From: Centroscyllium fabricii
Taxonomy: Eukaryota
NCBI GenBank assembly: GCA_051313645.2
Contig: JBNRSN020000028.1
Span: 14,756,001 to 14,820,000, forward strand
Length of the DNA stretch: 64,000 bases
Direction: 5' to 3'
Shown here: one piece after another, positions 1-34,339 of the stretch
Position numbering within the stretch: position 1 is the stretch's first letter
How the letters are laid out: each line of letters starts with the position of its first letter
Notes under the pieces: generated by a model
Told to the model about the DNA's origin: nothing
Database searches by the model: none
The model's input: only the letters and a program-made list of their open reading frames with translations
Position numbers and translations under genes: made by a program

Positions 1-2600
1 AGGAGGAGATTGAGTGTGTTGTCAGTGTGTCTTGTATTAGCAGGAGTCCGTGGTGAGGAGGGGATTGAGTGTGTTGTCAGTGTGTCTTGTATTAGCAGGA
101 GTCCGTGGTGGGGAGGGGATTGAGTGTGTTGTCAGTGTGTCTTGTATCAGCAGGAGTCCGTGGTGAGGAGGGGATTGAGTGTGTTGTCAGTGTGTCTTGT
201 ATTAGCAGGAGTCCGTGGTGAGATGAGGATTGAGTGTGTTGCCAGTGGGTCTTGTATTAGCAGGGTACGTGGTGATGAGGGGATTGAGTGTGTTGTCAGT
301 GTGTCTTGCATCAGCAGGAGTCCGTGGTGAGGAGGGGATTGAGCGTGTTGTCAGTGTGTCTTGTATTAGCAGGAGTCCGTGGTGAGGAGGCGATTGAGCG
401 TGTTGTCAGTGTGTCTTGTATTAGCAGGAGTCCGTGGTGAGGAGGGGATTGAGTGTGTTGTCAGTGTGTCTTGTATCAGCAGGAGTCCGTGGTGAGGAGG
501 GGATTGAGTGTGTTGTCAGTGTGTCTTGTATCAGCAGGAGTCCGTGGTGAGGAGGGGATTGAGTGTGTTGTCAGTGTGTCTTGTATTAGCAGGAGTCCGT
601 GGTGAGATGAGGATTGAGTGTGTTGCCAGTGGGTCTTGTATTAGCAGGGTACGTGGTGAGGAGGGGATTGAGTGTGTTGTCAGTGTGTCTTGTGTCAGCA
701 GGAGTCCGTGGTGAGGAGGGGATTGAGCGTGTTGTCAGTGTGTCTTGTATTAGCAGGAGTCCGTGGTGAGGAGGCGATTGAGCGTGTTGTCAGTGTGTCT
801 TGTATTAGCAGGAGTCCGTGGCGAGGAGGGGATAAAGTGTGTTGTCAGTGTGTCTTGTATTAGCAGGAGTCCGTGGTTATGAGGGGATTGAGTGTGTTGT
901 CAGTGTGTCTTGTATTAGCAGGGGTCCGTGGTGAGGAGGGGATTGAGTGTGTTGCCAGTGGGTCTTGTATTAGCAGGGGTCCGTGGTGAGGAGGGGATTG
1001 AGCGTGTTGTCAGTGTGTCTTGTATTAGCAGGAGTCCGTGGTGAGGAGGGGATTGAGTGTGTTGTCAGTGTGTCTTGTATTAGCAGGGGTCCGTGGTGAG
1101 GAGAGGGTTGAGTGTGTTGTCAGAGTGTCTTGTATTAGCAGGAGTCCGTGGTGAGCAGGGGATTGAGTGTGTTGTCAGTGTGTCTTGTATCAGCAGGGTC
1201 CGTGGTGAGGAGGGGATTGAGTGTGTTGTCAGTGTGTCTTGTATTAGCAGGGTCCGTGGTGAGGAGGCGATTGAGTGTGTTGTCAGTGTGTCTTGTATTA
1301 GTAGGAGTCCGTGGTGAGGAGGTGATTGAGTGTGTTGTCAGTGTGTCTTGTATTAGCAGGGTCCGTGGTGAGATGGGGATTGAGTGTGTTGTCAGTGTGT
1401 CTTCTATTAGCAGGAGTCCATGGTGAGGAGGGGATTGAGTGTGTTGCCAGTGGGTCTTGTATTAGCAGGGTCCGTGGTGAGGAGGTGATTGAGTGTGTTG
1501 CCAGTGGGTCTTGTATCAGCAGGGGTCCGTTGTGAGGAGCGGATTGAGTGTGTTGTAAGTGTGTCTTGTATTAGCAGGAGTCCGTGGTGAGGAGGGGATT
1601 GAGTGTGTTGTCAGTGTGTCTTGTATTAGCAGGGGTCCGTGGTGAGGAGGGGATTGAGGGTGTTGTCAGTGTGTCTTGTATTAGCAGGAGTCCGTGGCGA
1701 GGAGGGGATTAAGTGTGTTGTCAGTGTGTCTTGTATTAGCAGGAGTCCGTGGTTAGGAGGGGATTGAGTGTGTTGTCAGTGTGTCTTGTATTAGCAGTGG
1801 TCCGTGGTGAGGAGGGGATTGAGTGTGTTGTCAGTGTGTCTTGTATCAGCAGGGTCCGTGGTGAGGAGGGGATTGAGTGTGTTGTCAGTGTGTCTTCTAT
1901 TAGCAGGAGTCCGTGGTGAGGAGGAGATTGAGTGTGTTGTCAGTGTGTCTTGTATTAGCAGGGGTCCGGGTTGAGGAGGGGACTGAGTTTGTTGTCAGTG
2001 TGTCTTGTATTAGCAGGAGTCCGTGTTGAGGAGGGGATTGAGTGTGTTGTCAGTGTGTCTTGTATTAGAGGAGTCCGTGGTGAGATGGGGATTGAGTGTG
2101 TTGTCACTGTGTCTTGTATTAGCAGGAGTCCGTGTTAAGGAGGGGATTGAGTGTGTTGCCAGTGGGTCTTGTATTAGCAGGGTCCGTGGTGAGGAGGCGA
2201 TTGAGTGTGTTGGCAGTGTGTCTTGTATCAGCAGGTGTCCGTGGTGAGGAAGGGATTGAGTTTGTTGCCAGTGTGTCTTGTATCAGCAGGAGTCCGTGGT
2301 GAGGAGGGGATTGAATGTGTTGTCAGTGTGTCTTGTATTAGCAGGAGTCCGTGGTGAGATGAGGATTGAGTGTGTTGCCAGTGGGTCTTGTATTAGCAGG
2401 GTACGTGGTGAGGAGGGGATTGAGTGTGTTGTCAGTGTGCCTTGTATCAGCAGGAGTCCGTGGTGAGGAGGGGATTGAGCGTGTTGTCAGTGTGTCTTGT
2501 ATTAGCAGGAGTCCGTGTTGAGGAGGGGATTGAGTTTGTTGCCAGTGTGTCTTGTATCAGCAGGAGTCCGTGGTGAGGAGGGGATTGAGTGTGTTGTCAG
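1..2600. repeat. 54/55-bp tandem satellite, left block (continues beyond window start)
   Basis: Unit aggagtccgtggtgaggaggggattgagtgtgttgtcagtgtgtcttgtattagc repeated head-to-tail, with 54-bp variants (agggtcc). Confidence 0.98.
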
Positions 2601-3051
2601 TCGCCTCGAGGGTACAATTAAAATCTCCCCCGAGGATGATGCACTCGCCGCCGTCGACAGAGCTCAGAAGAGCGGACACTTCTTCAAAGAAGCGCACTTG
2701 CTGCGCACCGATCTGAGGGGCATACACGTTCACAAGATGGAGCGGCACGCCCCCGTGATGAACAGTGACCTGGAGCAAGCGGCCCGGCACGTGCTCCTTG
2801 ACCCTCAATATCTCCGGCTGAAAATGTGGGGACAGCAAGATAGCCACCCCGCTGGACATGTTGGAGAGGTGACTCATGCTGACCCCTCCTTGCCACTCCA
2901 GGAGCCACGTGGCCTCGTCTCCCGGAACGGTGTGGGTTTCTTGCAGGAAGCACACCGCATACTTCCCGTCCCGACGGACCGAGAATTTGTTATATCTACT
3001 GTATGCCTCCCTGCTGCCGTTGATGTTAAGGCTAGCTATGGTTATCTTCAT
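2601..3051 (-). pseudogene. Tx1-like ORF2 N-terminus (AP endonuclease); RT domain missing
   Basis: SLNING, CFLQETH, GVAILLS, VNVYAP and GGDFN motifs, after which the frame runs into satellite. Confidence 0.9.
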
Positions 3052-3076
3052 ATCAGCAGTCTAATACTAATTTTTC

Positions 3077-5210
3077 CTATCGGGGAGAAGGAGCGCAATC
3101 CTTGGATATACGCTCCTTCTTCCGCAGCCCATTGAGGAACTTCTTGAGCCGGCGCAGCTCGAGGTCATTATCGCCCCTGTCCGTGGCCAAGGTTTTAATG
3201 GCGACGCGGACAGATAAAATGAGCGGCGCCAGCTCCGACCACCTTTCGATGGCCTGACGGACCAGTTTTTGGTGACCCAGGCGCACGGCCACAAATTTCC
3301 GGAGCGCCGCCACGGGGATGAGGGGAGACTCGGCGGGGGGCTCGGGGCCGTCCACCACCTCATCGGTGATGAACTCCAGATCATCGTCCGCGCCCGGCTC
3401 CGAGTCCTCGTCCTCCTCCGGAAGGCCACCACCGGCGTCCGATCCATCAGCCGCGCATAACGCGACTAACGGCTCGGCCGCACCGTCTGACCCTACCTCT
3501 GTCTCGATCCCACCCCCAGGATCGGTAGCAGAGGAGTCCTCCCTGGGCTCCACCAGGGGTGCCGGGCCAGAGGGGGGCAGCAGTTCGGGGCTCCCCTCCT
3601 CCTCAAGCGCCGGAGAGCACGGAGAGACGGGGATGTATTCATATATTATCTTCTCCTGTGCGTCCGACGCCGATGTTGAGGGAGGGGTGAAGGAGCCGTC
3701 ACCTTCCCCGCCACCAACCACTGACCCAGCTTGTAGGGTATCCTGGCTTAGACTCTCGACCATATCGAGCAGCTCCTGGACAATACCGTTTTTGTTTTGG
3801 GCGAGGTCTATCCCTTCGACCTAGTCCACCCCTGTCTCCAGGACGCCCGACCCGTCGAGGTAAATTTGTTCCCCTTGAGGGTTTTGGTATTGCAGAGGTT
3901 GTTCCGCGTCCCCCCCCCTCGGGCAGGGCCATATCCCCATCCCCGGGAGACACAGGCGGGGCAATCTCATCCGCCCCACTCTCCCGCAAGACAGGCGACC
4001 CCCGCCCGTCTTTTACAACTATAGTGATTTTGGGAGGGGGCGCGGAGCACGACGATTCCGCTCCCTCGGGGGGACCGTCCTCATGATCACGGCCCCCCTG
4101 CTGACCCTGGGAGTCGAAGTCCTGCTTCCTTTTTATCCCGAAGGGCCACTGAGCGGGGGTGACCTCCATTTCTTCTAAGGCCACCCCCTCCTCTGTTCCC
4201 CCCGGCTGAATAGTTGTTTCGGGCCCCTTTTATCCGAGCCCTGCCGCAGTTGTTAGGTTTTCTGCCATGGCAGTGGCGGCCGCAGGCTCAGACTCGGGGC
4301 CCTCCTTGCTCCCATATTGATCCACCAGACCCTTGATGTAATCGGGAGTCATGGCTGGCAGGTCCTGCTGTTGGGCATCCCCTTCTAGGGGACCCTCCCT
4401 CCTTTGTTTTCTTTTGTTCCGCGCCTTCTTTCTGGCCGGACATGTTTCCTCCCCCCCGCCGGAGGCCGTGATGACATTGGCCTCCGACGACTCCCGCGCA
4501 CCCGACTTCCAAGACACGCGGCCTGACTCTGGGGGATGAGCGGCGCCGGTGCCATTTTTGGCCGCACTATTATTGGCGGCCTTGGAGGCGGGGCAGTTCC
4601 TCCTGATATGCCACACCTCCTTACATGCATGGCACCGCACGTTGTCCGTCGTCCAGAAGACGCAGTAGGCGGTCCCCTGGTACAGCACGGGGAACGCGCC
4701 ATCAGTGTCCTCCTCCCGCGCCAGCTGCATAAATAGCTGACGCCGGAAGGAGAAGACGTGGCGAAGGCTGGCCTCCCGGAACCCGAGCGGGATGGGCGTT
4801 ATCCCCGATCTCACCTCCCCAAGTTTGCGTAGGTGGGGGAGGAGGAGCTCACCGGGAATATAGGGCAGGATGTTTGAGAGGACCACCCTCTGCCCGGCGG
4901 CCTCAAGAGGGTCCACCGACAGGAAGGTGCCGCCCACGGTGAGCCCTTGTTCGATGGCCAGGGCCGCCGCCCGCTCAGATTTCAGGAAGAACACAGCCTT
5001 CCCATACATTTTAGAGGCCGCGACGATGGCTGAGGGGCCGACCACCCCAGCCATGGCCTTGAAGCATGCCTCTATTGTCATTGATGGGTGAGCGTAGCTC
5101 CGCACCCCCAGTTTCATTGTTAGTAGCCGGAAAGGTGACGGGGCATCAGGGGCAGCCGTGGTCTTGGCAGTGGATGCCACGGTTGCGTATGTTCCCGATG
5201 TCCCCGCCAC
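3077..5210 (-). pseudogene. Tx1-like ORF1 (zinc-knuckle nucleic-acid-binding protein), broken into three frames
   Basis: ORFs 4230-5210, 3699-4184 and 3077-3763 are collinear; CX2CX4HX4C motif; long low-complexity acidic/proline-rich linker. Confidence 0.8.
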
Positions 5211-6569
5211 CAGCGAAGATGTTGTCGCTATGCTACCAGGTGGGGAGGGGGTTTGGAGCCATGCTCACCCCAAGTCACAGGCCTTAGAGTTTAAAATGGC
5301 CTCAGATTGTTTTATTTGATTTTCCTCTTGAGCAGAGGGGGGGGGGTGATTAGATAAAGACACACCCCTCCCCTTGATGACAGAAGGGGGCTTAGGGGCC
5401 TTCTCCCCTCTACTCAATTGGCAATAGAAAAAATGAAAGGAAAGTAAATAATTGAGGCGCCTCTAGGGAAAGAGGCAGAGAGAGAGAGAGAGAGAGAGAG
5501 AGGGGTGGTGGGAAGGAGGGAGACCACAAGGGTTGGGTCCCCACTCAGGATGGATGGGTGGGTGGGTGTTGACTAAAGCAGGGTGCACTCTGCGATGGAA
5601 AAAGAAACCCCGGATGATGGTCTTCTGGTGGGGGGAGAAGATGTCTTCACCTGGGATAGCTGGAGATGCCCAGGCTCAGTCCACACCAGGTCTTTAAATA
5701 TGTTCGATTAATCAAAGACTTCACCTAGGCAGCTCCAGCTGTCCCAGGCCAGGCAATAGAAGGGGTGTTTTTAGTGGTGTGCGTGGCCTAGTTTGAATAG
5801 AAACCACACACAGACACACACACCCCTTGATGGTCCGGCCTTCTGGTCTTCTTTTCACCCCCTCCCACAAATAAACACAGTCTTTGAGAGAGTGCACCTA
5901 ATGAAACAACACCCACCTTCAGATGGTTATTCTCCCTCCTTCCGAGCAGTTGGTGATGATGATATCTTCCTCACCCCTCTCTCCCTCTCCCGAAATGGAG
6001 GCCAATCTGGAAGGCAATGATGGGTAGGCCTCAATGTTGTTGTTTTTGCCGGATTCTTGGCCTCCCTTTCCTCTCCTCCGTTTTCTCTCCCGAGGCACCT
6101 CTGCTTTACAAAGTATTCGAAGGGATGAATCCCAGCACTGAGTTCAGCAGTAAATTTAACTCTTCTGTAACTGAGCTTCAGGTGGCAGAACGCAATGTCC
6201 AGAATGTAGGCAACCGTAGTTCTCCGAAGTCCGCTCCACAGCTAAGACTCACTCTACCCGAGTTTCCAGAAGAGAATACATCATCTACAAGGCAGGGGAA
6301 CGCCCAAACCCATTGCCTCTCCAGGAGCTCAGACAGCAACCACTCCTTCGTAGTAATGAGCAGTAAGTAGAATGATCCGGCCACTGCCTGGTCTCAGCAC
6401 CCAGCTTATAAGCCGACTAGATAGATTAGTGCTAACCAATAAGAATGCAGGTATAGAGAACGAGGAACCCACAGGTATGTGCACAGGTAATTGAGGTATA
6501 ATGAACCAAAACAGAGAACAAAACATAGAATTCCAAAACGGATTCCTTAAAGGGGAATGCCATCTGTGA

Positions 6570-9500
6570 CAGGAGTCCGTGGTGAGATGGGGATTGAGTG
6601 TGTTGTCACTGTGACTTGTATTAGCAGGAGTCCGTGTTGAGGAGGGGATTGAGTGTGTTGCCAGTGGGTCTTGTATTAGCATGGACCGTGGTGAGGAGGG
6701 GATTGAGTGTGTTGTCAGTGTGTCTTGTATCAGCAGGTGTCCGTGGTGAGGAAGGGATTGAGTGTGTTGTCAGTGTGTCTTGTAGTAGCAGGAGTCCGTG
6801 TTGAGGAGGGGATTGAGCGCGTTGTCAGTGTGTCTTGTATTAGCAGGAGTCCGTGTTGAGGAGGTGATTGAGTGTGTTGCCAGTGTGTCTTTTATCAGCA
6901 GGAGTCCGTGGTGAGGTGGGGATTGAGTGTGTTGTCAGTGTGTCTTGAATTAGCAGGAGTCCGTGGTGAGATTGAGATTGAGTGTGTTGCCAATGGGTCT
7001 TGTATTAGCAGGAGTCCGTGTTGAGGAGGGGATTCAGTGTGTTGCCAGTGGGTCTTGTATTAGCAGGGTCCGTGGTGAGGAGGGGATTCAGTGTGTTGTC
7101 AGTGTGTCTTGTATCAGCAGGAGTCCGTGGTGAGGAGGGGATTGAGCGTGTTGTCAGTGTGTCTTGTATTAGCAGGAGTCCGTGGTGAGGAGGGGATTGA
7201 GTGTGTTGTCAGTGTGTCTTGTATTAGCAGGAGTCCGTGGTAAGGAGGGGATTGAGTGTGCTGTCAGTGTGTCTTGTATTAGCAGGGGTCCGTGGTGAGG
7301 AGGGGATTGAGGGTGTTGTCAGTGTGTCTTGTATTAGCAGGAGTCCGTGGTGAGATGGGGATTGAGTGTTTTGTCAGTGTGTCTTGTATTAGCAGGGTCC
7401 GTGTTGAGGAGGGGATTGAGTGTGTTGTCAGTGTGTCTTGTATTAGCAGGAGTCCGTGTGGAGTAGGGGATTGTGGGTGTTGTCAGTGTGTTTTGTATAG
7501 CAGGGGTCCCTGGTGAGGAGGGGATTGAGTGTGTTGTCAGTGTGTCTTGTATTAGCAGGTTCCGTGTTGAGGAGGGGATTGAGTGTGTTGTCAGTGTGTC
7601 TTGTATTAGCAGGGGTCCGTGGTGAGGAGGAGATTCAGTGTGTTGTCAGTGTGTCTTGAATTAGCGGGGTCCATGGTAAGGAGCGGATTGAGTGTGTTGT
7701 CAGTGTTTCATGTATTTGCAGGGTCCGTGGTGAGGAGGGGATTGAGTGTGTTGTCAGTGTGTCTTTTAATAGCAGGGTCCGTGGTGAGGATGGGATTGAG
7801 TGTGTTGTCAGTGTGTCTTGAATTAGCAGGAGTCCGTGGTGAGGAGGGGATTGAGTGTGTTGTCAGTGTGTCTTGTATTAGCAGGAGTCCCTGGTGAGGA
7901 GGGGATTGAATGTGTTGTCAGTGTGTCTTGTATTAGCAGGAGTCCGTGGTGAGGAGGGGATTGAGTGTGTTGTCAGTGTGTCTTGCATTAGCAGGGGTCC
8001 GTGGTGAGGAGGGGATTGAGCGTGTTGTCAGTGTGTCTTGTATTGGCAGGAGTCCGTGGTGAGGAGGGGATTGAGTGTGTTGTCAGTGTGTCTTGTATTA
8101 GCAGTGCTCCGTGGTGAGGAGAGGATTGAGTGTGTTGTCAGTGTGTCTTGTATTAGCAGGAGTCCGTGGTGAGCAGAGGTTTGAGTGTGTTGTCAGTGTG
8201 TCTTGTATCAGCAGGGTCCGTGGTGAGGATGGGACTGAGTGTGTTGTCAGTGTGTCTTGTATTAGCAGGGTCCGTGGTGAGGAGGCGATTGAGTGTGTTG
8301 TCAGTGTGTCTTGTATTGGCAGGGTTCCGTGGTGAGGAGGTGATTGAGTGTGTTGTCAGTGTGTCTTGTATTAGCAGGGTCCGTGGTGAGATGGGGATTG
8401 AGTGTGTTGTCAGTGTGTCTTGTATTAGCAGGGTCCGTGGTGAGATGGGGATTGAGTGTGTTGTCAGTGTGTCTTCTATTAGCAGGAGTCCATGGTGAGG
8501 AGGGGATTGAGTGTGTTGCCTGTGGGTCTTGTATTAGCAGGGTCCGTGGTGAGGAGATGATTGAGTGTGCTGCCAGTGGGTCTTGTATTAGCAGGGGTCC
8601 GTGGTGAGGAGCGGATTGAGTGTGTTGTAAGTGTGCCTTGTATTAGCAGGAGTCCGTGGTGAGGAGGAGATTGAGTGTGTTGTCAGTATGTTTTGTATTA
8701 GCAGGAGTCCGTGGTTAGGAGGGGATTGAGTGTGTTGTCAGTGTGTCTTTTATTAGCAGGGGTCCGTGGTGAGGAGGGGATTGAGTGTGTTGTCTGTGTG
8801 TCTTCTATCAGCAGGGTCCGTGGTGAGGAGGAGATTGAGTGTGTTGTCAGTGTGTCTTGTATTAGCAGGAGTCCGTGGTGAGGAGGAGATTGAGTGTGTT
8901 GTCAGTGTGTCTTGTATTAGCAGGGGTCCGTGTTGAGGAGGGGATTGAGTTTCTTGTCAGTGTGTCTTGTATTAGCAGGAGTCCGTGTTGAGGAGGGGAT
9001 TGAGTGTGTTGTCAGTGTGTCTTGTATTAGAGGAGTCCGAGGTGAGATGGGGATTCAGTGTGTTGTCAGTGTGTCTTGTATTAGCAGGAGTCCGTGTTAA
9101 GGAGGGGATTGAGTGTGTTGCCACTGGGTCTTGTATTAGCAGGGTCCGTGGTGAGGAGGGGATTGAGTGTGTTGTCAGTGTGTCTTGTATCAGCAGGTGT
9201 CCGTGGTGAGGAAGGGATTGAGTGTGTTGTCAGTGTGTCTTGTAGTAGCAGGAGTCCGTGTTGAGGAGGGGATTGAGTGTGTTGCCAGTGTGTCTTGTAT
9301 CAGCAGGAGTCCGTGGTGAGATGAGGATTGAGTGTGTTGTTGTGGGTCTTGTATTAGCAGGGTCCGTGGTGAGGAGGGGATTGAGTGTGTTGTCAGTGTG
9401 TCTTGTATCAGCAGGAGTCCGTGGTGAGGAGGGAATTGAGCGTGTTGTCAGTGTGTCTTGTATTAGCAGGAGTCCGTGGTGAGATGAGGATTGAGTGTGT

Positions 9501-12500
9501 TGTTGTGGGTCTTGTATTTGCAGGGTCCGTGGTGAGGAGGGGATTGAGAGTGTTGTCAGTGTGTCTTCTATCAGCAGGAGTCCGTGGTGAGGAGGGAATT
9601 GAGCGTGTTGTCAGTGTGTCTTGTATTAGCAGGACTCCGTGTTAAGGAGGGGATTGAGTGTGTTGCCAGTGGGTCTTGTATTAGCAGCGTCCGTGGTGAG
9701 GAGGGGATTGAGTGTGTTGTCCGTGGGTCTTGTATTAGCAGGGATCCGTGGTGAGGAGGTGATTGAGGGTGTTGTCAGTGTGTCTTGTATTAGCAGGGAT
9801 CCGTGGTGAGGAGGTGATTGAGTGTGTTGTCAGTGTGTCTTGTATTAGCAGGATCCGTGGTGAGGAGGGGATTGAGTGTGTTGTCAGTGTGTCTTGTATT
9901 AGCAGGGTCCGTGGTGAGGAGGGTATTGAGTGTGTTGTCAGTGTGTCTTGTATTAGCAGGGCCCGTGGTGAGTTGGGGATTGAGTGTGTTGTCAATGTGT
10001 CTTCTATTAGCAGGAGTCCATGGTGAGGAGGGGATTGAGTGTGTTGTCATTAGGTCTTGTATCAGCAGGGTCCGTGGTGAGGAGCGAATTGAGTGTGTTG
10101 TAAATGTGTCTTGTATTAGCAGGAGTCCGTGGTGAGGAGGAGATTGAGTGTTTTGTCAGTGTGCCTTGTATTAGCAGGAGTCCGTGGCGAGGAGGGGATT
10201 AAGTGTGTTGTCAGTGTGTCTTGTATTAGCAGGAGTCCGTTGTTAGGAGGGGATTGAGTGTGTTGTCAGTGTGCCTTGTATTAGCAGGGGTCCGTGGTGA
10301 GGAGGGGATTGAGTGTGTTGTCAGTATGTCTTGAATTAGCGGGGTCCGTGGTGAGGAGGGGATTGAGTGTGTTGTCAGTGTGTCGTGTCTTTGCAGGGTC
10401 CGTGGTGAGGAAGCGATTGAGTGTGTTGTCAGTGTGTCTTGAATTAGCAGGAGTCCGTGGTGAGGAAGGGATTGAGTGTGTTGTCAGTGTGTCTTGCATT
10501 AGCAGGGGTCCGTGGTGAGGAGGGGATTGAGCGTGTTGTCAGTGTGTCTTATATTGGCAGGAGTCCGTGGTGAGGAGGGGATTGAGTGTTTTGTCAGTGT
10601 GTCTTGTATTAGCAGTGGTCCGTGGTGAGGAGAGGATTGAGTGTGTTGTCAGTGTGTCTTGTATTAGCAGGAGTCCGTGGTGAGCAGGGGTTTGAGTGTG
10701 TTGTCAGTGTGTCTTGTATCAGCAGGGTCCGTGGTGAGGAGGGTATTGAGTGTGTTGTCAGTGTGTCTTGTATTAGCAGGGTCCGTGGTGAGGAGGCGAT
10801 TGAGTGTGTTGTCAGTGTGTCTTGTATTAGCAGGGGTCCGTGGTGAGGAGGCGATTGAGTGTGTTGTCAGTGTGTCTTGTATTAGCAGGGGTCCGTGGTG
10901 AGGAGGTGATTGAGTGTGTTGTCAGTGTGTCTTGTATTAGCAGGGTCCGTGGTTAGATGGGGATTGAGTGCGTTGTCAGTGTGTCTTGTATTAGCAGGGT
11001 CCGTGGTGAGGACGGGTTTGATTGTGTTGTCAGTGTGTCTTGTATTAGCAGGGTCCGTGGTGAGGACGGTATTGAGTGTGCTGTCAGTGTGTCTTGTATT
11101 AGCAGTGTCCGTGGTGAGATGGGGATTGAGTGTGTTGTCAGTGTGTCTTCTATTAGCAGGAGTCCATGGTGAGGAGGAGATTGAGTGTGTTGCCAGTGGG
11201 TCTTTTATTAGCAGGGTCCGTGGTGAGGAGATGATTGAGTGTGTTGCCAGTGGGTCTTGTATTAGCAGGGGTCCGTGGTGAGGAGCGGATTGAGTGTGTT
11301 GTAAGTGTGTCTTGTATTAGCAGGAGTCCGTGGTGAGGAGGAGATTGAGTGTGTTGTCAGTGTGTCTTGTATTAGCAGGAGTCCCTGGTGAGGAGGGGAT
11401 TGAATGTGTTGTCAGTGTGTCTTGTATTAGCAGGAGTCCTTGGTGAGGAGGGGATTGAGTGTGTTGTCAGTGTGTCTTGCATTAGCAGGGGTCCGTGGTG
11501 AGGAGGGGATTGAGCGTGTTGTCAGTGTCTCTCATATTGGCAGGAGTCCGTGGTGAGGAGGGGATTGAGTGTGTTGTCAGTGTGTCTTGTATTAGCAGTG
11601 GTCCGTGGTGAGGAGAGGATTGAGTGTGTTGTCAGTGTGTCTTGTATTAGCAGGAGTCCGTGGTGAGCAGGGGTTTGAGTGTGTTGTCAGTGTGTCTTGT
11701 ATCAGCAGGGTCCGTGGTGAGTAGGGGATTGAGTGTGTTGTCAGTGTGTCTTGTATTAGCAGGGTCCGTGGTGAGGAGGCGATTGAGTGTGTTGTCAGTG
11801 TGTCTTGTATTAACAGGGGTCCGTGGTGAGGAGGTGTTTGAGTGTGTTGTCAGTGTGTCTTGTATTAGCAGGGTCCGTGGTTAGATGGGGATTGAGTGCG
11901 TTGTCAGTGTGTCTTGTATTAGCAGGGTCCGTGGTGAGGACGGGTTTGATTGTGTTGTCAGTGTGTCTTGTATTAGCAGGGTCCGTGGTGAGGAGGGTAT
12001 TGAGTGTGCTGTCAGTGTGTCTTGTATTAGCAGTGTCCGTGGTGAGATGGGGATTGAGTGTGTTGTCAGTGTGTCTTCTATTAGCAGGAGTCCATGGTGA
12101 GGAGGAGATTGAGTGTGTTGCCAGTGGGTCTTGTATTAGCAGGGTCCGTGGTGAGGAGATGATTGAGTGTGTTGCCAGTGGGTCTTGTATTAGCAGGGGT
12201 CCGTGGTGAGGAGCGGATTGAGTGTGTTGTAAGTGTGTCTTGTATTAGCAGGAGTCCGTGGTGAGGAGGAGAATGAATGTGTTGTCAGTATGTCTTGTAT
12301 TAGCAGGAGTTCGTGGTTAGGAGGGGATTGATTGTGTTGTCAGGGTGTCTTGTATTAGCAGGGGTCCGTGGTGAGGAGGGGATTGAGTGTGTTGTCAGTG
12401 TGTCTTGTGTCAGCAGGGTCCGTGGTGAGGAGGAGATTGAGTGTGTTGTCAGTGTGTCTTGTATTAGCAGGAGTCCGTGGTGAGGAGGAGATTGAGTGTG

Positions 12501-15500
12501 TTGTCAGTGTGTCTTGTAATAGCAGGGGTCCGTGTTGAGGAGGGGATTGAGTTTGTTGTCAGTGTGTCTTGTATTAGAGGAGTCCGAGGTGAGATGGGGA
12601 TTCAGTGTGTTGTCAGTGTGTCTTGTATTAGCAGGAGTGCGTGTTAAGGAGGGGATTGAGTGTGTTGCCAGTGGGTCTTGTATTAGCAGGGTCCGTGGTG
12701 AGGAGGGGATTGAGTGTGTTGTCAGTGTGTCTTGTATCAGCAGGTGTCCGTGGTGAGGAAGGGATTGAGCGTGTTGTCAGTGTGTCTTGTAGTAGTTGGA
12801 GTCCGTGTTGAGGAGGGGATTGAGTGTGTTGCCAGTGTGTCTTGTATCAGCAGGAGTCCGTGGTGAGGAGGGGATTGAGTGTGTTGTCAGTGTGTCTTGT
12901 ATTAGCAGGAGTCCGGGGTGTGATGAGAATTGAGTGTGTTGTTGTGGGTCTTGTATTAGCAGGGTCCGTGGTGAGGAGGGGATTGAGTGTGTTGTCAGTG
13001 TGTCTTGTATCAGCAGGAGTCCGTGGTGAGGAGGGAATTGAGCGTGTTGTCAGTGTGTCTTGTATTAGCAGGAGTCCGTGTTAAGGAGGGGATTGAGTGT
13101 GTTGCCAGTGGGTCTTCTATTAGCAGGGTCCGTGGTGAGGAGGGGACTGAGTGTGTTGTCAGTGTGTCTTGTATTAGCAGGAATCCGTGGTGAGGAGGTG
13201 ATTGAGTGTGTTGTCAGTGTGTCTTGTATTAGGAGGGTCCGTGGTGAGGAGGGGATTGAGTGTGTTGTCAGTGTGTCTTGTATTAGCAGAGTCCGTGGTG
13301 AGTTGGGGATTGAGTGTGTTGTCAGTGTGTCTTCTATTAGCAGGAGTCCATGGTGAGGAGGGGATTGAGTGTGTTGTCATTGGGTCTTGTATTAGCAGGG
13401 TCCGTGGTGAGGAGCGAATTGAGTGTGTTGTAAGTGTGTCTTGTATTAGCAGGAGTCCGTGGTGAGGAGGAGATTGAGTGTGTTGTCAGTGTGTCTTGTA
13501 TTAGCAGGAGTCCGTGGCGAGGAGGGGATTAAGTGTGTTGTCAGTGTGTCTTGTATTAGCAGGAGTCTGTGGTTAGGAGGGGATTGAGTGTGTTGTCAGT
13601 GTGTCTTGTATTAGCAGGGGTCCGTGGTGAGGAGGGGATTGAGTGTGTTGTCAGTGTGTCTTGTATCAGCAGGGTCCGTGGTGAGGAGGGGATTGAGTGT
13701 GTTGTCAGTGTGTCTTCTATTAGCAGGAGTCCGTGGTGAGGAGGAGATTGAGTGTGTTCTCAGTGTGTCTTGTATTAGCAGGGGTCCGTGTTGAGGAGGG
13801 AATTGAGTTTGTTGTCAGTGTGTCTTGTATTAGCAGGAGTCCGTGTTGAGGAGGGGATTGAGTGTGTTGTCAGTGTGTCTTGTATTAGAGGAGTCCGTGG
13901 TGAGATGGGGATTGAGTGTGTTGTCAGTGTGTCTTGTATTAGCAGGAGTCCGTGTTAAGGAGGGGATTGAGTGTGTTGCCAGTGGGTCTTGTATTAGCAG
14001 GGTCCGTGGTGAGGAGGGGATTGAGTGTGTTGTCAGTGTGTCTTGTATCAGCAGGTGTCCGTGGTGTGGAAGGGATTGAGTGTGTTGTAAGTGTGTCTTG
14101 TAGTAGCAGGAGTCCGTGGTGAGGAGGGGATTGAGCGTGTTGTCAGTGTGTCTTGTATTAGCAGGAGTCCGTGTTGAGGAGGGGATTGAGTGTGTTGCCG
14201 GTGTGTCTTGTATCAGCAGGAGTCCGTGGTGAGGAGGGGATTGAGTGTGTTGTCAGTGTGTCTTGTATTAGCAGGAGTCCGTGGTGAGATGAGGATTGAG
14301 TGTGTTGCCAGTGGGTCTTGTATTTGCAGGGCCCGTGGTGAGGAGGGGATTGAGTGTGTTGTCAGTGTGTCTTGTATCAGCAGGAGTCCGTGGTGAGGAG
14401 GGGATTGAGCGTGTTGTCAGTGTGTCTTGTATTAGCAGGAGTCCGTGGTGAGGAGGAGATTGAGTGTGTTGTCAGTATGTCTTGTATTAGCAGGAGTCCG
14501 TGGTTAGGAGGGGATTGAGTGTGTTGTCAGTGTGTCTTTTATTAGCAGGGGTCCGTGGTGAGGAGGGGATTGAGTGTGTTGTCTGTGTGTCTTCTATCAG
14601 CAGGGCCCGTGGTGAGGAGGAGATTGAGTGTGCTGTCAGTGTGTCTTGTATTAGCAGGAGTCCGTGGTGAGGAGGAGATTGAGTGTGTTGTCAGTGTGTC
14701 TTGTATTAGCAGGGGTCCGTGTTGAGGAGGGGATTGAGTTTCTTGTCAGTGTGTCTTGTATTAGCAGGAGTCTGTGTTGAGGAGGGGATTGAGTGTGTTG
14801 TCAGTGTGTCTTGTATTAGAGGAGTCCGAGGTGAGATGGGGATTCAGTGTGTTGTCAGTGTGTCTTGTATTAGCAGGAGTCCGTGTTAAGGAGGGGATTG
14901 AGTGTGTTGCCACTGGGTCTTGTATTAGCAGGGTCCGTGGTGAGGAGAGGATTGAGTGTGTTGTCAGTGTGTCTTGTATCAGCAGGTGTCCGTGGTGAGG
15001 AAGGGATTGAGTGTGTTGTCAGTGTGTCTTGTAGTAGCAGGAGTCCGTGTTGAGGAGGGGATTGAGTGTGTTGCCAGTGTGTCTTGTATCAGCAGGAGTC
15101 CGTGGTGAGATGAGGATTGAGTGTGTTGTTGTGGGTCTTGTATTAGCAGGGTCCGTGGTGAGGAGGGGATTGAGTGTGTTGTCAGTGTGTCTTGTATCAG
15201 CAGGAGTCCGTGGTGAGGAGGGAATTGAGCGTGTTGTCAGTGTGTCTTGTATTAGCAGGAGTCCGTGGTGAGATGAGGATTGAGTGTGTTGTTGTGGGTC
15301 TTGTATTTGCAGGGTCCGTGGTGAGGAGGGGATTGAGAGTGTTGTCAGTGTGTCTTCTGTCAGCAGGAGTCCGTGGTGAGGAGGGAATTGAGCGTGTTGT
15401 CAGTGTGTCTTGTATTAGCAGGAGTCCGTGTTAAGGAGGGGATTGAGTGTGTTGCCAGTGGGTCTTGTATTAGCAGCGTCCGTGGTGAGGAGGGGATTGA

Positions 15501-18500
15501 GTGTGTTGTCCGTGGGTCTTGTATTAGCAGGGATCCGTGGTGAGGAGGTGATTGAGTGTGTTGTCAGTGTGTCTTGTATTAGCAGGGATCCGTGGTGAGG
15601 AGGTGATTGAGTGTGTTGTCAGTGTGTCTTGTATTAGCAGGATCCGTGGTGAGGAGGGGATTGAGTGTGTTGTCAGTGTGTCTTGTATTAGCAGGGTCCG
15701 TGGTGAGGAGGGTATTGAGTGTGTTGTCAGTGTGTCTTGTATTAGCAGGGCCCGTGGTGAGTTGGGGATTGAGTGTGTTGTCAATGTGTCTTCTATTAGC
15801 AGGAGTCCATGGTGAGGAGGGGATTGAGTGTGTTGTCATTAGGTCTTGTATCAGCAGGGTCCGTGGTGAGGAGCGAATTGAGTGTGTTGTAAATGTGTCT
15901 TGTATTAGCAGGAGTCCGTGGTGAGGAGGAGATTGAGTGTTTTGTCAGTGTGCCTTGTATTAGCAGGAGTCCGTGGCGAGGAGGGGATTAAGTGTGTTGT
16001 CAGTGTGTCTTGTATTAGCAGGAGTCCGTTGTTAGGAGGGGATTGAGTGTGTTGTCAGTGTGCCTTGTATTAGCAGGGGTCCGTGGTGAGGAGGGGATTG
16101 AGTGTGTTGTCAGTATGTCTTGAATTAGCGGGGTCCGTGGTGAGGAGGTGATTGAGTGTGTTGTCAGTGTGTCGTGTATTTGCAGGGTCCGTGGTGAGGA
16201 AGCGATTGAGTGTGTTGTCAGTGTGTCTTGAATTAGCAGGAGTCCGTGGTGAGGAGGGGATTGAGTGTGTTGTCAGTGTGTCTTGCATTAGCAGGGGTCC
16301 GTGGTGAGGAGGGGATTGAGCGTGTTGTCAGTGTGTCTTATATTGGCAGGAGTCCGTGGTGAGGAGGGGATTGAGTGTGTTGTCAGTGTGTCTTGTATTA
16401 GCAGTGGTCCGTGGTGAGGAGAGGATTGAGTGTGTTGTCAGTGTGTCTTGTATTAGCAGGAGTCCGTGGTGAGCAGGGGTTTGAGTGTGTTGTCAGTGTG
16501 TCTTGTATCAGCAGGGTCCGTGGTGAGGAGGGTATTGAGTGTGTTGTCAGTGTGTCTTGTATTAGCAGGGTCCGTGGTGAGGAGGCGATTGAGTGTGTTG
16601 TCAGTGTGTCTTGTATTAGCAGGGGTCCGTGGTGAGGAGGCGATTGAGTGTGTTGTCAGTGTGTCTTGTATTAGCAGGGGTCCGTGGTGAGGAGGTGATT
16701 GAGTGTGTTGTCAGTGTGTCTTGTATTAGCAGGGTCCGTGGTTAGATGGGGATTGAGTGCGTTGTCAGTGTGTCTTGTATTAGCAGGGTCCGTGGTGAGG
16801 ACGGGTTTGATTGTGTTGTCAGTGTGTCTTGTATTAGCAGGGTCCGTGGTGAGGAGGGTATTGAGTGTTCTGTCAGTGTGTCTTGTATTAGCAGTGTCCG
16901 TGGTGAGATGGGGATTGAGTGTGTTGTCAGTGTGTCTTCTATTAGCAGGAGTCCATGGTGAGGAGGAGATTGAGTGTGTTGCCAGTGGGTCTTTTATTAG
17001 CAGGGTCCGTGGTGAGGAGATGATTGAGTGTGTTGCCAGTGGGTCTTGTATTAGCAGGGGTCCGTGGTGAGGAGCGGATTGAGTGTGTTGTAAGTGTGTC
17101 TTGTATTAGCAGGAGTCCGTGGTGAGGAGGAGATTGAGTGTGTTGTCAGTGTGTCTTGTATTAGCAGGAGTCCCTGGTGAGGAGGGGATTGAATGTGTTG
17201 TCAGTGTGTCTTGTATTAGCAGGAGTCCTTGGTGAGGAGGGGATTGAGTGTGTTGTCAGTGTGTCTTGCATTAGCAGGGGTCCGTGGTGAGGAGGGGATT
17301 GAGCGTGTTGTCAGTGTCTCTCATATTGGCAGGAGTCCGTGGTGAGGAGGGGATTGAGTGTGTTGTCAGTGTGTCTTGTATTAGCAGTGGTCCGTGGTGA
17401 GGAGAGGATTGAGTGTGTTGTCAGTGTGTCTTGTATTAGCAGGAGTCCGTGGTGAGCAGGGGTTTGAGTGTGTTGTCAGTGTGTCTTGTATCAGCAGGGT
17501 CCGTGGTGAGTAGGGGATTGAGTGTGTTGTCAGTGTGTCTTGTATTAGCAGGGTCCGTGGTGAGGAGGCGATTGAGTGTGTTGTCAGTGTGTCTTGTATT
17601 AGCAGGGGTCCGTGGTGAGGAGGTGTTTGAGTGTGTTGTCAGTGTGTCTTGTATTAGCAGGGTCCGTGGTTAGATGGGGATTGAGTGCGTTGTCAGTGTG
17701 TCTTGTATTAGCAGGGTCCGTGGTGAGGACGGGTTTGATTGTGTTGTCAGTGTGTCTTGTATTAGCAGGGTCCGTGGTGAGGAGGGTATTGAGTGTGCTG
17801 TCAGTGTGTCTTGTATTAGCAGTGTCCGTGGTGAGATGGGGATTGAGTGTGTTGTCAGTGTGTCTTCTATTAGCAGGAGTCCATGGTGAGGAGGAGATTG
17901 AGTGTGTTGCCAGTGGGTCTTGTATTAGCAGGGTCCGTGGTGAGGAGATGATTGAGTGTGTTGCCAGTGGGTCTTGTATTAGCAGGGGTCCGTGGTGAGG
18001 AGCGGATTGAGTGTGTTGTAAGTGTGTCTTGTATTAGCAGGAGTCCGTGGTGAGGAGGAGATTGAATGTGTTGTCAGTATGTCTTGTATTAGCAGGAGTT
18101 CGTGGTTAGGAGGGGATTGATTGTGTTGTCAGGGTGTCTTGTATTAGCAGGGGTCCGTGGTGAGGAGGGGATTGAGTGTGTTGTCAGTGTGTCTTGTGTC
18201 AGCAGGGTCCGTGGTGAGGAGGAGATTGAGTGTGTTGTCAGTGTGTCTTGTATTAGCAGGAGTCCGTGGTGAGGAGGAGATTGAGTGTGTTGTCAGTGTG
18301 TCTTGTAATAGCAGGGGTCCGTGTTGAGGAGGGGATTGAGTTTGTTGTCAGTGTGTCTTGTATTAGAGGAGTCCAAGGTGAGATGGGGATTCAGTGTGTT
18401 GTCAGTGTGTCTTGTATTAGCAGGAGTGCGTGTTAAGGAGGGGATTGAGTGTGTTGCCAGTGGGTCTTGTATTAGCAGGGTCCGTGGTGAGGAGGGGATT

Positions 18501-21500
18501 GAGTGTGTTGTCAGTGTGTCTTGTATCAGCAGGTGTCCGTGGTGAGGAAGGGATTGAGCGTGTTGTCAGTGTGTCTTGTAGTAGCAGGAGTCCGTGTTGA
18601 GGAGGGGATTGAGTGTGTTGCCAGTGTGTCTTGTATCAGCAGGAGTCCGTGGTGAGGAGGGGATTGAGTGTGTTGTCAGTGTGTCTTGTATTAGCAGGAG
18701 TCCGTGGTGTGATGAGAATTGAGTGTGTTGTTGTGGGTCTTGTATTAGCAGGGTCCGTGGTGAGGAGGGGATTGAGTGTGTTGTCAGTGTGTCTTGTATC
18801 AGCAGGAGTCCGTGGTGAGGAGGGAATTGAGCGTGTTGTCAGTGTGTCTTGTATTAGCAGGAGTCCGTGTTAAGGAGGGGATTGAGTGTGTTGCCAGTGG
18901 GTCTTCTATTAGCAGGGTCCGTGGTGAGGAGGGGACTGAGTGTGTTGTCAGTGTGTCTTGTATTAGCAGGAATCCGTGGTGAGGAGGTGATTGAGTGTGT
19001 TGTCAGTGTGTCTTGTATTAGGAGGGTCCGTGGTGAGGAGGGGATTGAGTGTGTTGTCAGTGTGTCTTGTATTAGCAGAGTCCGTGGTGAGTTGGGGATT
19101 GAGTGTGTTGTCAGTGTGTCTTCTATTAGCAGGAGTCCATGGTGAGGAGGGGATTGAGTGTGTTGTCATTGGGTCTTGTATTAGCAGGGTCCGTGGTGAG
19201 GAGCGAATTGAGTGTGTTGTAAGTGTGTCTTGTATTAGCAGGAGTCCGTGGTGAGGAGGAGATTGAGTGTGTTGTCAGTGTGTCTTGTATTAGCAGGAGT
19301 CCGTGGCGAGGAGGGGATTAAGTGTGTTGTCAGTGTGTCTTGTATTAGCAGGAGTCCGTGGTTAGGAGGGGATTGAGTGTGTTGTCAGTGTGTCTTGTAT
19401 TAGCAGGGGTCCGTGGTGAGGAGGGGATTGAGTGTGTTGTCAGTGTGTCTTGTATCAGCAGGGTCCGTGGTGAGGAGGGGATTGAGTGTGTTGTCAGTGT
19501 GTCTTCTATTAGCAGGAGTCCGTGGTGAGGAGGAGATTGAGTGTGTTCTCAGTGTGTCTTGTATTAGCAGGGGTCCGTGTTGAGGAGGGAATTGAGTTTG
19601 TTGTCAGTGTGTCTTGTATTAGCAGGAGTCCGTGTTGAGGAGGGGATTGAGTGTGTTGTCAGTGTGTCTTGTATTAGAGGAGTCCGTGGTGAGATGGGGA
19701 TTGAGTGTGTTGTCAGTGTGTCTTGTATTAGCAGGAGTCCGTGTTAAGGAGGGGATTGAGTGTGTTGCCAGTGGGTCTTGTATTAGCAGGGTCCGTGGTG
19801 AGGAGGGGATTGAGTGTGTTGTCAGTGTGTCTTGTATCAGCAGGTGTCCGTGGTGTGGAAGGGATTGAGTGTGTTGTAAGTGTGTCTTGTAGTAGCAGGA
19901 GTCCGTGGTGAGGAGGGGATTGAGCGTGTTGTCAGTGTGTCTTGTATTAGCAGGAGTCCGTGTTGAGGAGGGGATTGAGTGTGTTGCCAGTGTGTCTTGT
20001 ATCAGCAGGAGTCCGTGGTGAGGAGGGGATTGAGTGTGTTGTCAGTGTGTCTTGTATTAGCAGGAGTCCGTGGTGAGATGAGGATTGAGTGTGTTGCCAG
20101 TGGGTCTTGTATTTGCAGGGCCCGTGGTGAGGAGGGGATTGAGTGTGTTGTCAGTGTGTCTTGTATCAGCAGGAGTCCGTGGTGAGGAGGGGATTGAGCG
20201 TGTTGTCAGTGTGTCTTGTATTAGCAGGAGTCCGTGGTGAGGAGGGGATTGAGTGTGTTGTCAGTGTGTCTTGTATTAGAAGGAGTCCGTGGTAAGGATG
20301 GGGTTGAGTGTGCTGTCAGTGTGTCTTGTATTAGCAGGGGTCCGTGGTGAGGAGGGGATTGAGGGTGTTGTCAGTGTGTCTTGTATTAGCAGGAGTCCGT
20401 GGTGAGGAGGGGATTGAATGTGTTGTCAGTGTGTCTTGTATTAGCAGGAGTCCGTGGCGAGGAGGGGATTAAGTGTGTTGTCAGTGTGTCTTGTATTAGC
20501 AGGAGTCCGTGGTTAGGAGGGGATTGAGTGTGTTGTCAGTGTGTCTTGTATTAGCAGGGGTCCGTGGTGAGGAGGGGATTGAGTGTGTTGTCAGTGTGTC
20601 TTGTATTAGCAGGAGTCGGTTGTGAGGAGGGGATTGAGTGTGTTGTCAGTGTGTCTTGTATTAGCAGGAGTCCGTGGCGAGGAGGGGATTAAGTGTGTTG
20701 TCAGTGTGTCTTGTATTCGCAGGAGTCCGTGGTGAGGAGGGGATTGAGTGTGTTGTCAGTGTGTCTTGTGTCAGCAGGGTCCGTGGTGAGGAGGAGATTG
20801 AGTGTGTTGTCAGTGTGTCTTGTATTAGCAGGAGTCCGTGGTGAGGAGGGGATTGAGTGTGTTGTCAGTGTGTCTTGTATTAGCAGGGGTCCGTGTTGAG
20901 GAGGGGTTTGGGTGTGTTGTCAGTGTGTCTTGTATTAGCAGGGTCCGTGGTGAGGAGGGGATTGAGTGTGTTGTCAGTGTGTTTTGTATCAGCAGGTGTC
21001 CGTGGTGAGGAAAGGATTGAGTGTGTTGTCAGTGTGTCTTGTATTAGCAGGAGTCCGTGTTGAGGAGGGGATTGAGTGTGTTGCCAGTGGGTTTTGGATT
21101 AGCAGGGTCCTTGGTGAGGAGGGGATTGAGTGTGTTGTCAGTGTGTCTTGTATCAGCAGGAGTCCGTGGTGAGGAGGGGATTGAGCGTGTTGTCAGTGTG
21201 TCTTGTATTAGCAGGAGTCCGTGGTGAGGAGGGGATTGAGTGTGTTGTCAGTGTGTCTTGTATTAGCAGGAGTCCGTGGTAAGGAGGGGATTGAGGGTGT
21301 TGTCAGTGTGTCTTGTATTAGCAGGAGTCCGTGGTGAGGAGGGGATTGAGTGGTGTTTTCAGTGTGTCTTGTATTAGCAGGAGCCGTGGTGAGGAGGCGA
21401 TTGAGTGTGTTCCCAGTGTGTCTTGTATCAGCAGGTGTCCATGGTGAGGACGGGATTGAGGGGGATGTCAGTGTGTCTTGTATTAGCAGGGTCTGTGTTG

Positions 21501-22876
21501 AGGAGGGGATTGAGCGTGTTGTCAGTGTGTCTTGTATTAGCAGGGTCCGTGGTGAGGAGGGGATTGAGTGTGTTGTCAGTGTGTCTTGTATTAGCAGGAG
21601 TCCGTGGTGAGCAGGGGATTGAGTGTGTTGTCAGTGTGTCTTGTATCAGCAGGGTCCGTGGTGAGGAGGGTATTGAGTGTGTTGTCAGTGTGTCTTGTAT
21701 TAGCAGGGTCCGTGGTGAGGAGGGGATTGAGTGTGTTGCTAGTGGGTCTTGTATTAGCAGGTGTCCGTGGTGAGGAGGGGATTGAGTGTTTTGTCAGTGT
21801 GTCTTGTATTAGCAGGAGTCCGTGGTGAGGAGGGGATTGAGTGTGTTGTCAGTGTGTCTTGTATTAGCAGGAGTCCGTGGTGAGGAGGGGATTGAGTGTG
21901 TTGTCAGTGTGTCTTGTATTAGCAGGGTCCGTGGTGAGGAGGAGATTGAGTGTGTTGTCAGTGTGTCTTGTATTAGCAGGAGTCCGTGGTGAGATGGGGA
22001 TTGAGGGTGTTGTCAGTGTGTCTTGTATTAGCAGGAGTCCGTGGTGAGGAGGGGATTGAGTGTGTTGCCAGTGGGTCTTGTATTAGCAGTGTCGGTGGTG
22101 AGGAAGGGATTGAGTGTGTTGCCAGTGTGTCTTGTATTAGCAGGAGTCCGTGGTGAGGAGGGGATTGAGGGTGTTGTCAGTGTGTCTTGTATTAGCAGGA
22201 GTCCGTGTTGAGTAGGGGATTGAGTGTGTTGCCAGTGGGTCTTGTATTAGCAGTGTCGGTGGTGAGGAAGGGATTGAGTGTGTTGCCAGTGTGTCTTGTA
22301 TTAGCAGGAGTCCGTGGTGAGGAGGAGATTGAGTGTGTTGTCAGTGTGTCTTGTATCAGCAGGAGTCCATGTTGTGGAAGGGATTGAGTGTGTTGCCAGT
22401 GTGTCTTGTATTAGCAGGAGTCCGTGGTGAGGAGGGGATTCAGCGTGTTGTCAGTGTGTCTTGTATTAGCAGGAGTCCGTGTTGAGGAGGGGATTGAGTG
22501 TGTTGTCAGTGTGTCTTGTATTAGCAGGGTCCGTGTTGAGGAGGGGATTGAGTGTGTTGTCAGTGTGTCTTGTATTAGCAGGAGTCCGTGGTGAGGAGGG
22601 GATTGAATGTGTTGTCAGTGTGTCTTGTATTAGCAGGGTCCGTGGTGAGGAGTGGATTGAGTGTGTTGTCAGTGTGTCTTGTATCAGCAGGAGTCCGTGT
22701 TGAGGAGGGGATTGAGTGTGTTGCCAGTGTGTCTTGTATTAGCAGGAGTCCGTGGTGAGGAGGGGATTGAGTGTGTTGTCACTGTGTCTTGTATTAGCAG
22801 GAGACCGTGGTGAGGAGGGCATTGAGTGTGTTGTCAGTGTGTCTTGTATTAGCAGTGTCCGTGGTGAGGAGGGGAT
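6570..22876. repeat. 54/55-bp tandem satellite, main block (~295 units) with higher-order structure
   Basis: Same unit as 1-2600; variant patterns recur at a 5789-bp offset (8985/14774, 10622/16411, 14190/19979) and a 928-bp offset (10957/11885). Confidence 0.98.
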
Positions 22877-23178
22877 TTCCCCAAACCGAGCAGGTGACGG
22901 CGGCGGAGGGACAATCGGTTCAAATCCGGTGCGATGCGACCACCAGGAGCAGTGAATGATTTTGTGGTACCGTCAATTACCGGGCCGGGCACCGCAATTC
23001 ACAATCTCCGCCTATCAGTAATACAGCCGACGGGAGCGGGGGGTTCAAGTTATTCGTTGACAGAAGGAGGAGTTATAACAGTTTCGGTGTGCGGGAAACC
23101 GCGGCTCCAGACTCCAGGGGTGTTGCTGTGCGAATACGGACACTGGGGCAAAGGGTGAGAAATCCTGTACAGTAAACC
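22856..23178 (+). pseudogene. TCR V pseudogene (TRAV-like) whose exon start is the last satellite unit
   Basis: With frameshifts reads VRGEEGIS-QTEQVTAAEGQSVQIRC...WYRQLPGRAPQF..SAYQ*..FKLFVDRRRSYNSF..APDS; degenerate RSS cactggg (23141) ... acagtaaacc. Confidence 0.8.
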
Positions 23179-24362: not shown

Positions 24363-24648
24363 ATGAACCGGAACCTCCGCAAAGTCCTGTTCCCAGTTGG
24401 AGCCTTGGTGCTGTTGATGTTATGTGAGTTCATCTATCAGCTCAGACGCCTTGTTTCATTCATCTTTTAATAGCCTGTGGTTGTTGTGTGAGTTTGTTTT
24501 GTTCACAGCCGTTCGATGCGAGGGTCGGACCTCACACGCTGAGCAGGTGGTATCTCGAGAAGGGGAACGGACTGAACTGGACGGCCGGCTCTCCGTTGTT
24601 ACTGGGGATAATGTAGCCTGGTACAGACAAGCTTTGACGGGGTCCTAG
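24363..24648 (+). pseudogene. TCR V pseudogene truncated by CR1
   Basis: Leader 24363-24423 MNRNLRKVLFPVGALVLLML, phase-1 gtgagt..cacag intron, exon from 24509 VRCEGRTSHAEQVVSREGERTELDG(Cys lost)..VAWYRQ, then LINE sequence. Confidence 0.8.
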
Positions 24649-24649
24649 A

Positions 24650-25488
24650 GATTGGAGGTTGGGTGATTGGGCAGAAGCGTGGCAGATGCAGTATAACGTG
24701 GATAAATGCGAGGTCATCCACTTTGCTGTAAAAAACAGAAAGGCAGACTATTATCTGAATGGGAATAGATTGGGAGACGGGGAAGTGCACCAGTCGCTGA
24801 AGGTAAGCATGCAGGTGCAGCAAGCGGTGAAGAAGGCAAATGGCATGTTGGCCTTCATAGCGAGAGGGTTTGAGTACAGGAACAAGGATGTCCCGCTGCA
24901 GTTGTGCAGGGCCTTGGTGAGACCACACCTTGAGTATTGTGTGCAGTTTTGGTCGCCTTATCTAAGGAAGGATGTTCTTGCCATGGAGGAAGTGCAGCGA
25001 AGATTCACCAGACTGATACCTGGGATGGCAGGAATGACGTATGAGGAGAAATTGGGTCGATTGGGTTTATACCTGCTGGAGGTTAGAAGAATGAGAGGGG
25101 ATCTCATTGAAACTTATAAAGTTCTGAGAGGTCTGGACAGACTAAATACAGGAAGAATGTTCCCGATGGTCGGAGATTCCAGAACCAGGGGTCACAGTCT
25201 AAGGATAAGGGGTAGGTCATTTAGGACAGAGATTAGGAGGAATTTCTTCACCCAGAGAGTGGTGAACCTGTGGAATTCTCTACCACAGAATGTAGTTGAG
25301 GCCAAGTCATTAATTATATTCAAGAAGGAGTCAGATATAGTTCTTGGAGCTAAAGGTATCAAGGGATATGGGGAGAAGGCAGGTACGGGATACTGAGTTT
25401 GGATGATCAGCCATGATCTCATTGAATGGAGGAGCAGGCTTGAGGGGCCGAATGGCCGACTCCTGCTCCTATCTTCTATGTTTCTATG
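24650..25488 (+). mobile_element. CR1-type LINE, 5'-truncated
   Basis: ORF2 C-terminus WQMQYNVDKC..LVRPHLEYCVQFWSP..RRMRGDLIE..FFTQRVVNLWNSLP; 3'UTR ending (ttctatgt)n. Confidence 0.95.
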
Positions 25489-30176: not shown

Positions 30177-30200
30177 CACACTGAGAGTTCCAGCTAGTGC

Positions 30201-34300: not shown

Positions 34301-34339
34301 CACGGTGCTTCAAAACTGCTCGACTTCCGTACAAAAACC
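34301..34339 (+). other. 23-spacer recombination signal sequence
   Basis: CACGGTG + 23 bp + ACAAAAACC. Confidence 0.93.

Follow-up and report, generated by a model that had tools for sequence, protein, structure and literature searches.

A giant minisatellite that probably grew from the splice-acceptor junction of a T-cell receptor V pseudogene in Centroscyllium fabricii

Minisatellites that span an intron/exon boundary, known as 'mirages', have been described in the amphioxus Adh3 gene and in the globin genes BflGb6 and BflGb9 (PMC3087553). Their units join the 3' end of an intron to the start of an exon in head-to-tail order, keep the splice signals and vary in length of array. A very large array that is probably of the same kind occurs in a 64,000-nt stretch of the Centroscyllium fabricii genome (C800:14756001-14820000, C800 being the contig that carries it); this whole stretch is called the window. 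Here a 55-bp tandem array runs up to a T-cell receptor (TCR) variable (V) pseudo-exon of the alpha/delta type. With a probability of about 0.85, we read it as a locus-confined minisatellite that grew in place from the 55-bp stretch holding the splice acceptor and first codons of a V gene that was likely already dead, its extra acceptors probably being neutral.

Three properties ally this array with the mirages: the tandem unit spans a real host intron/exon boundary (35 nt plus 20 nt), the array lies in place with its edge unit continuous with an authentic exon, and its length is unstable among paralogous copies. Whereas amphioxus BflGb6 holds 3-6 units of 150-160 bp in a working, normally spliced gene (PMC3087553), the present case has about 1,220-1,290 units and ~80 kb per large array, four arrays in all, and a dead vertebrate V as host. 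The 37-bp variable number tandem repeat in intron 7 of human F7 (PMC1557585) is likewise a minisatellite whose edge unit straddles an exon/intron boundary, with a splice site multiplied and the extra sites normally silent; in contrast, that site is a donor rather than an acceptor, the gene is functional and the case has been tested experimentally. The 30-mer in intron 3 of human CACNA1C (10.1101/311795) is similar in having one copy in relatives and a multi-kb, in-place array in one lineage, with splice-like motifs in its units, but it measures 3-30+ kb, lies deep in the intron, does not derive from a real exon boundary and has reported enhancer activity. Compared with the boundary-spanning repeats of these papers, the array described here is far larger, and it sits in an antigen-receptor locus. 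Within the available literature, subscription papers lying outside its scope, we found no satellite derived from an antigen-receptor V junction and no shark TCR satellite; the words 'satellite' and 'tandem repeat' occur nowhere in the main text of PMC12227049.

Tandem Repeats Finder (TRF) places the array on the forward strand at window positions 1-2601 (47.5 copies) and 6570-22877 (298.5 copies, about 298 units). A reading made earlier from the sequence only had proposed a satellite of >19 kb amplified ~340-fold in the window. The amplification agrees with the 346 units obtained by unit parsing and the large array is real, but its repeat DNA in the window comes to 18.9 kb and is split by a 3.97-kb insertion (2602-6569, reverse strand). 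The window contains the 3' end of array A1, which extends left to C800:14700191 and totals 78.7 kb, or ~1,220 units of 55 bp. Each unit comprises 35 nt of intron end, including the AG, and 20 nt of exon start, with ATT at both bounds. The terminal unit, a 54-nt variant, and its closing ATT occupy 22821-22877 (forward strand); as had been noticed at this junction, it runs unbroken into the V exon, which the acceptor AG (22854-22855) adjoins. The pseudo-exon itself (22856-23138, forward strand) has three to four frameshifts. While the earlier acceptor parse stood, the peptides GVRGEEGI, EQVTAAEG and WYRQLPG, which had been read together, lie in different frames with frameshifts between them. A recombination signal sequence (RSS) of the 23 type follows at 23139-23177 (forward strand), with heptamer GACACTG (no CAC), a 23-nt spacer and nonamer ACAGTAAAC; it is called degenerate by comparison with the intact RSS at 34301 and 45965.

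From sequence comparison, the unit is the 3' end of the leader intron plus the first codons of its own host V, amplified in place. Searching with the array/V junction identified four paralogues at C800:11.07-11.28 Mb, in which the match starts exactly one unit upstream of the junction. Two of these (L005 and L004) carry one unit each, with 50/55 and 46/55 identity to the array majority unit, and the L005 unit has ATT at each end; the other two (L006 and L007) also carry one unit, with a 10-base deletion across the acceptor. Chance likeness is excluded, because the majority unit matches the four other V junctions in the window at 16-23 of 55 positions and that of the sister family at 29/55. In this intact sister V family (e.g., L092) the leader measures 37 nt, the intron is 80 nt long, as compared with 77 nt in L004/L005, and the acceptor is in register with the unit; the residues after the AG are V-R-G-E-E-G-I-S-Q-T-E-Q-V in the array V and I-G-G-E-A-V-I-H-Q-P-Q-Q-V in the sister family. 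The earlier proposal that the unit came from the intron/exon junction of one V is thus borne out by paralogues that carry this junction once and by the register of the sister V. The leader exon, expected to the left of the array, was located 55.9 kb left of the window (ATG at C800:14700110, 38 nt). A1 starts 43 nt into the leader intron, and the intron of the host V has gone from roughly 77 bases to 79 kb through ~1,200 repeats of the junction piece.

The same comparisons bear on the idea that the V intron was invaded or converted by a satellite already dispersed beforehand, its acceptor likeness being fortuitous. This is extremely improbable; no point in its support was found in this analysis, and in paralogues with a single unit that unit is colinear with the sequence on either side, while its register agrees with that of the intact sister V. 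Neither of the two outcomes named in advance as refuting the earlier reading, genome-wide dispersal of the unit and a lack of similarity to it at the junctions of paralogous Vs, was observed. A 25-mer of the unit has 987 exact matches in the 7.2-Gb genome, all in forward orientation, and 987/987 lie inside four sibling arrays within 0.49 Mb of C800 rather than at several loci or chromosomes, which refutes a dispersed origin for close copies, as diverged copies elsewhere could escape exact matching.

These four arrays are A1 (C800:14700191-14778877, 1,223 parsed units), A2 (C800:14874758-14897795, 268 units), A3 (C800:15000661-15082894, 1,285 units) and A4 (C800:15172999-15187728, 268 units), together 3,044 parsed units, where the parser omits the first unit of A1, A3 and A4. 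A search with the upstream flank of the paralogues yielded eight copies, four of which lead straight into an array. The base at which the array begins after the leader flank is identical in all four, and in three of them so is the base at which it stops before the V exon. In unrooted flank trees the array genes form one clade (bootstrap 99 and 100), diverging from each other by 0-1.9% in the left flank and 1.0-2.8% in the right flank, and by 8-16% from the single-unit genes. They sit in duplicated V cassettes, 98-99.9% alike, that also contain open-frame V segments. This is most simply read as a single origin, with segmental duplication afterwards.

Array length is unstable: paralogues that differ by 0-3% hold between 268 and 1,285 units. 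Identical unit runs recur over up to 71 units within A1 and 61 within A3, a 1-kb insertion is doubled inside both A1 and A3, and a 5.5-kb insertion common to A1 and A2 is absent from A3. This block recurrence and the differing insertions indicate that the arrays both grew and shrank by block exchange. Among the 3,044 units we distinguished 776 unit types, and 42 units are identical to the column-majority unit, a scarcity that would reflect the history of founder variants rather than selection. The V exon of A4 is gone: a short shared motif (C800:15187728, L079) marks the join between the final unit of this array and sequence ~43 kb downstream in the A1 cassette. This deletion also took neighbouring Vs, among them the counterparts homologous to the open-frame Vs at window positions 33999 and 45663. 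The insertion at 2602-6569, which we read as a non-LTR (long terminal repeat) retrotransposon fragment, is present in A2 and A3 as well and also holds a piece common to another insertion. It has a truncated endonuclease frame (2557-3060; Pfam Exo_endo_phos, E=1.6e-7) and a zinc-knuckle-like ORF1-like frame (4230-5264) that has no Pfam match; the element may be Tx1-like. In addition, a 5.7-kb insertion with TG...CA ends was found in A3 only (C800:15027400-15033089, L069-L070), although the A1/A3 flanks are 99.7% alike; it is young and useful for dating.

The 99.7% identity of the A1 and A3 cassettes would favor an assembly artefact as the main source of array length or number. We consider this improbable, given that the 776 unit types occur in non-periodic order, the transposon insertions differ per array, and tandem units are present in public runs, whose contigs show presence rather than absence. 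Head-to-tail joins or unit-into-unit loose ends occur in X1 and X2 (organism A), a pair of samples from a single study that is possibly the source of the assembly, with summed contig depth, which is not copy number, of about 15,000-22,000 over the unit versus 30-270 on the flanks. A second study likewise showed tandem units as a head-to-tail join (X5) and loose ends (X7). Summed depth of the array-clade leader flank (21-24, versus 7-10 for contigs of single-copy paralogues) is compatible with two or four array genes. In the fragmentary contigs of organism C (X9), the junction is covered but shows neither a join nor a depth peak, the unit is not followed by an extra C, and a loose end of 13 letters has the in-frame form of framework region 3 (FR3). 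Units by the thousand could hardly have escaped notice; organism C is an apparent unexpanded relative. The locus thereby offers an unusually complete record of the birth of a satellite, comprising single-unit progenitors, exact array edges on both sides, this relative and four replicate arrays confined to one place, and growth and shrinkage are traceable because all of these are in hand.

The host gene has the short leader exon, phase-1 intron, V-set exon and 23-RSS of a TCR alpha/delta-type V. A paralogue V gives a weak Pfam V-set match (E=0.005), and the sister V is nearest to TCR V clusters; protein homologue searches found no named close relative for the paralogue V among longer proteins, nor for the sister V. 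Both the V and its RSS are dead. The window V is frameshifted near 22880 (in a C run), 22955 and 23018, and in FR3 near 23117, and it lacks an open frame through leader and V. With the sister family as reference, the FR3 frameshift (8 rather than 9 nt between the Asp and Tyr codons) is present in 7/7 of the family's V exons, those of every single-unit paralogue among them, while two further frameshifts of the array copies have no counterpart in single-unit genes. A CAC is required in the RSS heptamer; the array copies lack it, the window heptamer beginning with GAC. Leaders are damaged as well, being 38 nt long and out of phase in A1, A3 and A4, with donor GTGACA in A1/A3 and CT in A2. Since the FR3 frameshift is shared with the single-unit genes, the family was likely dead before one copy expanded, so that, on sequence grounds, amplification likely began in a pseudogene. 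Within the sister family, Ser replaces the first conserved Cys in 7/8 copies (L094-L100, C800:13.97-15.12 Mb); the Cys is retained only in L092, yet all eight frames are open.

The AG is retained in 2,971/3,044 units (330/346 in the window) and a GTGAG motif 9 nt past it in 2,291/3,044. For a splice into an internal unit, the predicted median distance to a stop is 21 codons in phase 1 and 3 codons in phase 2 (2,753 units). Together with the two frameshifts peculiar to array copies, the retained AG and these early stops could mean that the array arose in a functional V and helped to kill it, through competing acceptors or a stretched leader intron, with frameshifts following later. This order of events is unlikely, because all four single-unit paralogues are also dead and have the same FR3 frameshift, and mirages in functional amphioxus genes are reported without disturbance of splicing (PMC3087553).

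Retention of AG and GTGAG, and the still recognisable upstream flank and leader, might also suggest that the acceptors, with the GTGAGG donor-like sites 9 nt on, are maintained as decoys or micro-exons shaping germline V transcripts. When conservation is ranked over 776 unit types, however, the two AG columns are 10th and 24th of 55 and the donor-like G, among the most variable columns, is 52nd; thus neither shows signs of being under selection. The pyrimidine content of the acceptor is low (0.55 versus 0.60-0.75 in five other V acceptors), the leaders and donors of A1-A3 are damaged as described, and the unusable RSS means that no TCR chain is possible. Maintenance of this kind is therefore very improbable. 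The sequence-only reading had stressed hundreds of decoy acceptors, a significance that finds no support in view of the dead V, the broken RSS, the ordinary conservation of the AG and the comparable amplification of non-V sequence. With V and RSS unusable there is no splicing product to regulate; the surplus acceptors, which number thousands, are probably neutral, and no new splicing mechanism is indicated, because the host V is dead.

The amplified non-V sequence is a 51-bp array (window 35967-43670, 151 copies) 13 kb from the 55-bp array, inside a reverse-strand retrotransposon fossil that is presumably CR1. Its progenitors are dispersed copies on other contigs (L109, L111 and L112) with one unit at the same place and boundary repeats of 4-8 bp. 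This array grew in place from non-V sequence, and seeding is therefore not V-specific. Like the 55-bp array, it is ATT-bounded and ends in ATTTCC; sibling 51-bp arrays occur in at least 6 other cassettes at C800 14.10-15.10 Mb. By TRF, 29 arrays measuring 500 bp or longer, their units including 27, 48, 51 and 55 bp, cover 272/594 kb here, a figure that counts insertions inside merged arrays and arrays from several unrelated families, versus 4 arrays and 5.9/200 kb in 20 control stretches, 3/4 of these arrays being on the same contig. The region breeds large minisatellites from whatever sequence is present, and one seed happened to span a splice junction.

The history that we favor for the 55-bp array would begin with the FR3 frameshift arising in the V family. 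Two ATT trinucleotides are separated by 55 bp, and through slippage or unequal repair between them one copy would have acquired a dimer, which may then have grown by unequal exchange, multi-kb blocks being copied together with inserted transposons. Segmental duplication of 120-185-kb V cassettes would have produced four arrays that grew and shrank independently to 268 to 1,285 units, and a deletion from the A4 end would have removed its V exon and about 43 kb. Such growth resembles the Haber-Louis model (PMC6947457), in which short direct repeats bound the unit and slippage and unequal exchange drive expansion. Several points weigh against this account. The boundary homology is 3 bp, below the 5-10 bp of that model (PMC6947457), which the 51-bp array fits better. 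The trees are unrooted, and polarity is taken from parsimony, the sister family and the fragmentary X9 contigs. An extra C is common to the array genes and L004/L005 and absent in L006/L007, whereas by left flank L006/L007 are closer to the array genes; some homoplasy or conversion is therefore needed, and gene conversion could have spread the shared frameshift. The A1/A3 cassettes could be two haplotypes placed in tandem. Finally, block copying makes column variation non-independent, so that the conservation ranks test selection weakly.

Arrays with a 27-bp unit occur once per V cassette (C800:14660431-14667128, 14840241-14851663, 14967855-14977471, 15142759-15149186 and 15195128-15206378). 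Pairwise cassette identity appears to shift across them, and they may be crossover sites of the cassette duplications. It is possible, though doubtful, that giant minisatellites actively reshape the TCR V repertoire in the germline as crossover or deletion points for cassettes with intact Vs, the 80-kb inserts altering spacing or accessibility of neighbouring Vs; this reading draws on the 43-kb deletion at the A4 end and on the switching of cassette identity at the 27-bp arrays. In practical terms, arrays of this kind conceal leader exons by placing them 80 kb away from the V exons, and the locus will defeat assembly from short reads as well as annotation.

Apart from the array V, the window contains two open-frame Vs with canonical 23-RSS (33999-34339 and 45660-46003). 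The first of these (V exon 33999-34301; Pfam V-set, 5.5e-15) has TRDV3 as its best PDB match (E=2e-18), with TCR alpha chains also among its best solved relatives; a protein homologue search returned no named close relative and a single Ig-like protein, distant and from a teleost. Other V segments or pieces of them lie on both strands (24365-24650, 27650-27900, 29836-30180, 30756-31054, 55310-55597 and 57846-58416), mostly broken or interrupted by retrotransposons. A C1-set search revealed no clear TCR constant exon nearby among the 150 of 390 candidates scored, and neither J nor C segments of the TCR were located. Immunoglobulin heavy chain (IgH)-like constant exons were seen among the TCR-type Vs at C800:14506848 and 11194344; in elasmobranchs, TCR alpha/delta-type V exons have been described amid IgH clusters (PMC12227049).

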